The position numbers and the translations under genes were made by a program. Under the pieces are notes generated by a model. The model was given only the letters and a program-made list of their open reading frames with translations. It ran no database searches and was not told where the DNA came from. Below, in pieces: positions 16,337-16,920 of a DNA stretch of 64,000 nucleotides. Location of the stretch: IMG/VR virus record IMGVR_UViG_3300037851_000831, positions 32,783 to 96,782 of that record; one strand, written 5' to 3'. The number at the start of each line of letters is the position of its first letter. The first letter of the stretch is position 1. Source of the stretch: a virus.

Positions 16337-16920
16337 TGCCGAGGGCGGGTCGTTAACCCACTATAAAGGATTCAGGCTTCAATTCCCTCCTCCCTCTTGT
16401 TTCCCCTCAGCCATCATTGAAGTTTTACCGGCTGAGGGAGGCGTCGTTGCGCACTCTCCACGGCATGATGATTCAACTTACTACCCAACGCCCTACCCGG
16501 TGGCGAGATTCGCGTTTAGCACCCCCATATTTATTATACAGGCAGTACCCGCCAGCGATTTCCCTCGGCGGTTTCATTCATTATTTTAGTCATGCCACTT
16601 AGACATTTAATTGTTCGGTGTTTGGTTGCGAACCAGAGGAATTCGGTCTTTTACCCTCGATACGTCGATCTTGGCGAGCCCCGTGACGCTTTCCCGGAGA
16701 AACATTCCCGAGTCGGCGCTTCGACTATGCCGGAACTGTGAATCCTCTAAAGGCCCGTCGGTTCGGGATTTCCACCCAAAGCGGTGTGGGGGATGCTCCC
16801 ACTCTTCACATTTTCCAGCCACATCCCGTTACCTCCCACTATAGCCTTCTTTCAGGCTGTCACACGTCCTACCATGTTGCAGGCAAGGCGTTGAGTAGTA
16901 AGTTGAATCTGTAAAGAACG
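16337..16920 (-). ncRNA. candidate large structured RNA: 380-nt domain closed by a 30-bp stem, plus a domain of about 130 nt
   Basis: Arms 16880-16909 and 16470-16499 pair over 30 bp, and all 4 non-WC pairs are G-U on the minus strand; boxA-like CGTTCTTTAC 16911-20; promoter TTGACA 17052-57 / CATAGT 17030-35. Confidence 0.75.

Follow-up and report, generated by a model that had tools for sequence, protein, structure and literature searches.

In bacterial ribosomal RNA (rRNA) operons, leader-trailer helices flank each rRNA and are cut by RNase III (PMC10250234). The boxA signal, whose gamma-proteobacterial consensus reads GYTCTTTAANA (PMC5725501), suffices for the antitermination complex and is also required for it; through boxA-NusB tethering, the leader strand has been proposed to stay near the RNA exit channel until the trailer comes out (PMC10250234). 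In phages, large RNAs of the transfer RNA (tRNA) regions such as ROOL, GOLLD and manA form RNA-only assemblies (PMC12286853; bioRxiv 10.64898/2026.07.01.735769), and manA forms RNA-only cages in vitro (bioRxiv 10.64898/2026.07.01.735769). Examination of a window of 64,000 nucleotides (nt), bases 32783-96782 of the 96,782-base IMG/VR record IMGVR_UViG_3300037851_000831 (linear, about 47% complete), revealed a phage element that resembles both groups: a 380-nt folded core closed by a 30-pair stem (the stalk), with the boxA-like 10-mer GTTCTTTACA next to its 5' arm. The feature is real and unusual: a gene for a non-coding RNA that bears a stalk like that of rRNA. The coordinates of its parts and neighbours are collected in Table 1.

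The phage locus shows the same order of promoter, boxA or boxA-like motif, 5' helix strand, folded RNA and 3' strand as a bacterial rrn stalk (PMC10250234, PMC5725501, PMC6582327), and both loci give an untranslated RNA and have tRNA genes further on. An earlier note on this DNA had likened the stem to the RNase III-type processing stems that flank pre-rRNA; with its flanks joined in a long helix and a boxA-like element against the 5' arm, the layout bears out that likeness. The phage unit differs in being phage-encoded, in its payload, which is not rRNA (no match to small-subunit or large-subunit rRNA), and in its spacing, with the stem beginning 1 nt past the motif and boxC of enterobacterial leaders 18-19 nt past boxA (PMC10250234). 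The best explanation appears to be a stand-alone phage non-coding RNA gene of ~440 nt organised as an rRNA-style expression and processing unit, a chain of steps to which, taken whole, we give slightly better than an even chance. Transcription from P1, a phage promoter of sigma-70 type, would yield an untranslated transcript. The boxA-like site might then recruit host antitermination factors of the NusB/NusE type, which would let RNA polymerase finish a long untranslated RNA exposed to Rho, and the same site would hold the 5' strand nearby until its 3' counterpart has been transcribed. The stem would clamp the 380-nt core and could be cut near its middle by host RNase III, and a stable RNA of ~410 nt that keeps 14-16 pairs of the stem is the predicted product.

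The two arms, 16909-16880 and 16499-16470, form 30 consecutive pairs on the minus strand, 26 of them Watson-Crick and four G-U; read on the plus strand, the four G-U pairs become A-C mismatches. A repeat finder recovered the arms as 16470-16497 and 16882-16909. In a gapless helix scan allowing G-U pairs (both strands, span of at most 1200, whole 96,782-base record), this stem was the longest helix, ahead of runners-up of 20 pairs that are either one local hairpin or G-U-rich chance matches. What the earlier note had read from the letters is thus confirmed: the arms match at 26 of 30 positions by sequence, repeat finder and helix scan, and all four differences prove in the scan to be G-U on the minus and A-C on the plus strand. 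The arm duplex reaches a predicted -50.9 kcal/mol on the minus strand, where it is fully paired, as against -36.3 kcal/mol on the plus strand, where internal loops open at the four A-C positions. The 461-nt minus-strand segment folds to -171.1 kcal/mol (z-score z = -4.8, with 0 of 100 shuffles as good), and the stem has a pairing probability of 0.99 in the ensemble; the plus strand of the segment folds to -140.9 kcal/mol (z = -2.6). A fold of the full predicted transcript (829 nt) retains the stem, at z = -5.0.

The comparative data consist of short contigs from the public runs X2-X5 over the locus, with X2, X3 and X4 giving short parts only; stretches left uncovered in a run carry no meaning, and the habitats of the runs (freshwater, wetland, soil, root) rest on small shares and are not to be taken as established. 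X4 is a viral metagenome and X5 a size-fractionated root metatranscriptome. No credible open reading frame (ORF) lies in the 1.5 kb that separate the stop of a 291-amino-acid ORF (17054) from an RNA ligase gene beginning at 15509. Five ORFs of 40-77 amino acids overlap the element, and every one of them is frameshifted by the 2-nt deletion of the X4 relative or by the +2, +6 and +2 insertions of the X5 relative. The interior of the element therefore does not code for protein, and a protein-coding gene was rejected on these grounds.

The minus strand carries all genes in the left part of the window, and two promoters of a recurrent class lie on it at the RNA locus. The pattern TTGACW-N16-CATAGT was found at 10 sites in the window against 0.47 expected, always along the local gene direction, and P1 and P2 are two of these sites. 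Five others (4531, 7430, 11525, 13520 and 48976) have an ATG 6-7 nt past the -10 box, which places the transcription start for the class; from their sequence, the genes at these positions are probably expressed as leaderless mRNAs. By the same rule the P1 start falls ~100 nt ahead of the stem, the promoter itself being ~110 nt upstream. An ATG 5 nt past the -10 box of P1 opens an 8-codon frame at the transcript start (17024-16998, minus strand; ATG TTC TTA GGA ACA CCC GGC AAG TAG), which may be due to chance.

In a strand-neutral DNA repeat, four mismatches out of four would be G-U on the same strand with a probability of ~0.01-0.05, varying with the proportion of transitions, and by itself the G-U asymmetry is a suggestive, not a decisive, sign of selection on RNA. 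Selection on RNA and the minus strand, both proposed in the earlier note, follow from this asymmetry taken with the gene orientation, the two minus-strand promoters of the class and the frameshifting indels in relatives. A stalked RNA gene on the minus strand is, in our judgement, highly probable.

Table 1. Features of the stalked RNA element and of its surroundings; positions are those of the window.
Feature	Position	Strand	Remarks
Promoter P1 (TTGACA, 16 nt, CATAGT)	17030..17057	-	sigma-70-like; predicted start near 17022
Untranslated leader, ~100 nt	16920..17022	-	inferred from sequence and fold; predicted hairpins incl. GGTC-TTCG-GATC at 16957-16946
boxA-like 10-mer GTTCTTTACA	16910..16919	-	abuts first base of 5' stem arm
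5' strand of 30-pair closing stem	16880..16909	-	sequence, repeat finder, helix scan, fold
Structured core, 380 nt	16500..16879	-	predicted fold; no Rfam match
Two small hairpins of core	16877-16862, 16858-16843	-	predicted fold
9-pair stalk extension	16839-16831 with 16509-16500	-	predicted fold
13-pair clamp around variable sub-domain	16819-16805 with 16742-16729	-	predicted fold
Conserved hairpin	16571-16549	-	predicted fold
Hairpin	16548-16519	-	predicted fold; lengthened in X5 relative
3' strand of closing stem	16470..16499	-	sequence, repeat finder, helix scan, fold
Second folded domain, same predicted transcript	16200..16469	-	fold; ends in long hairpin 16321-16217, then U-rich run
Promoter P2	16157-16184	-	sigma-70-like; opens next untranslated unit (folded RNA, tRNA-like element, tRNA-Gly)
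Second GTTCTTTACA copy	16140-16149	-	just after promoter P2
tRNA-shaped element	15848-15919	-	directly upstream of tRNA-Gly(UCC)
tRNA-Gly(UCC)	15757-15830	-	Rfam, ARAGORN
wcaG-like RNA (RF01761)	15587-15691	-	38.2 bits vs cut-off 42, E = 4e-5; 800 nt downstream of element
Rnl2-like ATP-dependent RNA ligase gene	14433-15509	-	PF09414, PHROG 548; distant relative; 960 nt downstream of RNA element
Rnl1-like ATP-dependent RNA ligase gene	5992-7131	-	PHROG 562; TIGR02308 below cut-off; distant relative

An inverted repeat acting at the DNA level, whether a miniature inverted-repeat transposable element (MITE) or another recombination or replication repeat, could also present 30-bp terminal repeats around 380 bp. 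A MITE would suit the size and the terminal inverted repeats (26/30 complementary), and the wetland DNA contig (X2) stops at precisely 16469, the first base beyond the arm, while X4 has a different upstream flank, both as might arise from an insertion polymorphism; the contig end may be a drop in coverage (depth 2.3). However, the 96.8-kb record contains the element only once, a 23-mer fitting both arms had no match in metagenome contigs or in the genomes of 185,579 GTDB species (one genome each), and the flanks CATGAT and TGTAAA share no target-site duplication. The four arm mismatches are all G-U on the transcribed strand, and the X4 flank diverges at 16924, with the boxA-like site kept, and not at the arm end 16909. 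As for a replication repeat, the gene strand switch near 24 kb of the window is the likelier origin. A DNA-level feature is, in our judgement, very improbable.

Comparison with the partial relatives shows where the unit begins and which parts of it vary. The X4 contig, which covers 16693-16924, is identical to the phage over 16805-16924 (boxA-like site, 5' arm and first hairpins), with 0 changes there, whereas 16693-16804 has 10 substitutions and the 2-nt deletion (Fisher p = 0.0006). Beyond 16924 on the upstream side nothing of the contig matches: the leader is missing and a promoter-like sequence stands directly before the motif, and the conserved unit therefore begins at the boxA-like site. 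In X5, a contig is 88% identical over 16483-16646, and its predicted hairpin 16548-16519 has grown by matching insertions in the two flanks of the helix, going from -11.9 to -25.2 kcal/mol. Four single changes in relatives turn U-G into C-G or C-G into U-G, the two in X5 being U-G to C-G. Pairing probabilities of the core helices are 0.8-0.98.

Exact copies of GTTCTTTACA number only two in the window, both on the minus strand at this RNA locus. The earlier note's boxA-like element directly upstream of the 5' arm is indeed there, the copy at 16919-16910 touching the stem. With the next base included, GTTCTTTACAG agrees with the consensus at 9 of 11 positions, the first eight all matching, the consensus being gamma-proteobacterial and perhaps not that of the host. 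The five promoters of leaderless mRNAs have no boxA-like motif, and the three promoters that open untranslated stretches (17057, 16184 and 26316) have GTTCTT within ~25 nt: P1 has GTTCTTA at its start as well as the complete 10-mer next to the stem, and for the promoter at 26316 the motif is GTTCTTTTCA, 21 nt past the -10 box. A promoter-like site at 26699 is also followed by GTTCTTTGATCA. The motif thus seems to track untranslated RNA, a distribution to be expected if it shields such transcripts from Rho in the way that boxA does in rrn operons (PMC10250234). That it is a working boxA is possible, at a little under an even chance. The promoter at 26316 belongs to a second gene-free stretch (26316-27150, plus strand) in which GTTCTTTTCA precedes an RNA of ~300 nt with a closing helix of 12 pairs (z = -2.7) that Rfam did not match; the stretch behind the 26699 site has no fold signal (z = 0.09).

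Resemblance to the rRNA stalk of a particular host was sought with the 18-mer GTTCTTTACAGATTCAAC, which spans the motif and the start of the stem. It had 20 matches in GTDB genomes, about the number expected by chance; four of them, in Acidobacteriota, represent one conserved protein gene, and the eight match loci checked contained no rRNA or other Rfam family. Mimicry of a host rRNA stalk thus has no support at the 18-mer level.

The stem could also serve as a clamp that keeps the two ends of a stable RNA joined and protects them against exonucleases, without being a processing site, and GTTCTTTACA could be a signal of phage transcript starts in place of a Nus-binding boxA. The stem and the RNA gene would then stand as described, the motif does depart from the consensus at two of 11 positions, and GTTCTT does sit right at the predicted starts of P1 and P2, as would a promoter-proximal element. 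On the other hand, the copy at 16919-16910 lies ~100 nt past the start and abuts the stem, which is the arrangement of rRNA spacers. Moreover, a perfect duplex of 30 pairs is a natural substrate of RNase III in any host with the enzyme, and the junctions found in the RNA library fall mid-stem. We hold this alternative to be unlikely, and prefer to see in the stem and motif an rRNA-style processing unit.

These junctions come from two X5 contigs, which cover 16335-16646 and 16866-16896 and both end in a piece of 29-31 nt matching 16894/16896 down to 16866. The first is 100% identical to the phage over 16459-16335 and then joins 16335 to 16894/5. The second runs from 16646 down to 16483, continues with 72 letters unmatched in the locus, and resumes at 16896 down to 16866. 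Position 16896 is stem position 14 and has 16483 as its partner, so that the junctions lie at stem positions 14-16; the 5' arm is therefore joined mid-stem in two contexts, with the 3' arm breaking off opposite. The stretches 16647-16865 and 16897-16931 are without X5 contigs, which is not evidence of processing. As leads only, the junctions fit (i) a mid-stem cut of RNase III type, with the 5'-phosphate end ligated to other RNA in the cell or during library preparation, (ii) a circular or permuted RNA, or (iii) a relative whose stalk has diverged in its outer half, on both strands, with the units in tandem or otherwise ordered. Cutting by RNase III seems to us as probable as its opposite, and RNase III processing of the stalk, as the earlier note proposed it, is plausible, the junctions giving a weak hint of it.

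The second of these leads would have the stem cut mid-helix and its ends rejoined by phage ligases of the Rnl1/Rnl2 type. RNase III leaves 5'-phosphate and 3'-hydroxyl ends that are chemically compatible with ATP-dependent RNA ligases, and circular pre-rRNA intermediates occur in archaea. The joint at which the second contig goes back has base-paired partners, 16483 and 16896, as its break points, the other contig, fully identical to the phage, joins 16335 to 16894/5, and the phage encodes an Rnl2-like ligase just downstream and an Rnl1-like one further on (Table 1). Yet one joint contains the 72 foreign letters and the other involves an unrelated downstream site, and no X5 contig joins the two arm ends (16481-16483 to 16896) directly. 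Ligase-based preparation of small-RNA libraries makes such chimeras in the tube, and a tandem or rearranged gene order in a relative would give the same contigs; in addition, steric strain disfavours the very small loop that would have to close the helix end, and the case rests on one library. We regard circularisation by a phage ligase, also raised in the earlier note, as improbable. Were it true, the element would be a bacterial-virus counterpart of the archaeal circular pre-rRNA intermediates and a natural substrate of phage RNA ligases other than broken tRNA.

Several observations weigh against the rRNA-style expression and processing unit that we favour. The junction evidence comes from one library with no DNA control, which may itself contain DNA; contigs cannot show RNA ends or strand, and the junction pieces of 29-31 nt are about as long as the overlaps of an assembly graph. 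The record, with about 47% of the genome, has no RNase III gene, and cutting would therefore rely on a host enzyme. The motif misses 2 of the 11 consensus positions, and that consensus may not be the host's own boxA. The stalk is without covariation support, because no full-length homolog was found and the stalk pairs are invariant in the partial relatives. Some X4 changes, around 16744-16767, break predicted core pairs, which makes the core model provisional there. Lastly, other untranslated units of the phage have no comparable long stalk, be it the unit after P2 (fold z = -2.6) or 26728-27170 (z = 0.09).

Downstream of the stalk, the second folded domain probably belongs to the same transcription unit, as suggested by the predicted transcript. 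It is 100% identical over 16235-16469 in the wetland DNA run and over 16335-16459 in the root RNA library, and is more conserved than the core of the stalked element. The whole element might be taken for a structured leader or spacer of the downstream tRNA operon, its stem merely separating transcripts as in the spacers of rRNA-tRNA precursors. The element does lie upstream of the tRNA-like element and tRNA-Gly on the same strand, and processed spacers are known from rRNA-tRNA operons (PMC10250234). A terminator-like hairpin and P2 nevertheless stand between it and the tRNAs, and the strong fold statistics and patchy conservation of the 380-nt core exceed what a spacer needs; we find this explanation quite improbable, if a shade less so than a DNA-level repeat. 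Of the two small RNAs behind P2, the tRNA-shaped one has an acceptor stem of 7 pairs, a T arm and, on a poor anticodon stem, the loop CUCAUAA (anticodon CAU); ARAGORN did not call it, and a weak match to tRNA-Sec (19 bits) is its sole Rfam match.

A search of 16460-16925 with Rfam 15, at E up to 10, gave no match to any family. Candidates rejected in this way are rRNA, RNase P RNA, transfer-messenger RNA (also without an ARAGORN call), group I and group II introns, ribozymes and Y RNA, as well as manA (RF01745), wcaG (RF01761), ROOL (RF03087) and GOLLD (RF02032), none of whose covariance models matched. A retron msr-msd is equally rejected, with no RVT_1 match in the record and with an AvrB-like protein and an RNA ligase as neighbours, and so is a Y RNA or YrlA working with Ro60, the about-47%-complete record having no TROVE or RtcB gene.

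Among the large RNAs of phages and prophages, ROOL and GOLLD often lie beside tRNA genes (PMC12286853). They share such a place with the element, as well as a size above 400 nt and a highly folded and non-coding nature, and the element differs from them by its 30-pair terminal stalk and boxA-like leader. The orphan RNAs manA and wcaG, from cyanophages and marine bacteria, have a similar phage setting, and here a wcaG-like element follows at a short distance. Phage T4, which also has both Rnl1 and Rnl2 ligases, encodes in its tRNA cluster the stable RNAs C and D (~120-140 nt), which are cut from a tRNA precursor; they resemble the element in lying beside tRNAs in a phage with these two ligases, whereas they are much smaller and have neither a boxA nor a long stalk. 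Our guess, prompted by the neighbours of the element (tRNA-like element, tRNA-Gly, wcaG-like RNA, Rnl2-like and Rnl1-like ligases), is that the core could be a stable, self-contained RNA particle akin to ROOL, GOLLD and manA, used alongside the phage tRNAs and RNA ligases.

Homologs were sought at several levels. Exact words from the arms and core had no match in viral, metagenome or genome contigs, and blastn against 50,697 phage records returned tRNA-Gly only. No homolog of the element was found by BLAST over 72 IMG/VR records of related myoviruses, obtained through their tail sheath, nor by nhmmer --max with a search for long helices in the 12 longest relatives (675 kb), in which the sole 21-pair helix falls inside a coding gene. 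The regions upstream of the Rnl2 homologs L005-L007 were likewise without one, and a search via relatives of the upstream 291-amino-acid protein yielded no full-length homolog.

If the favoured explanation is true, phages borrow host rRNA signals (boxA antitermination, leader-trailer helix and RNase III) for large stable RNAs of their own; no paper describing a promoter-boxA-stalk layout for phage RNAs was found in the literature. The phage also offers an internal contrast between leaderless mRNAs and untranslated units with a boxA-like motif, and its orphan 380-nt core adds to the short list of large phage RNAs formed by ROOL, GOLLD and manA. This is a single instance, and its value is limited by the missing homologs. 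As a defined construct, the element lends itself to tests of cleavage by RNase III, of Nus binding, of ligase action and of self-assembly.

The tail sheath encoded in the window (989 amino acids) places the phage among the large myoviruses, with a genome of roughly 200 kb, and by this protein its closest cultured relative is Microcystis phage Mel-JY01 (47% identity). The wcaG-like RNA has tRNA-Gly on one side and the promoter for the Rnl2-like ligase on the other, and a soil-metagenome contig, otherwise identical, is without 54 nt (15635-15688) inside it. On the other side of the element, the stop codon of the 291-amino-acid protein gene (17054-17929, minus strand) is overlapped by the -35 box of P1. 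This protein has no Pfam, PHROG or NCBIfam match, and its structural model is of low confidence (predicted local distance difference test (pLDDT) 58, predicted template modelling score (pTM) 0.61). The six best PDB matches of the model are all the Pseudomonas syringae effector AvrB, a Fido-fold rhamnosyltransferase (Foldseek E = 6e-4, TM 0.46-0.48).

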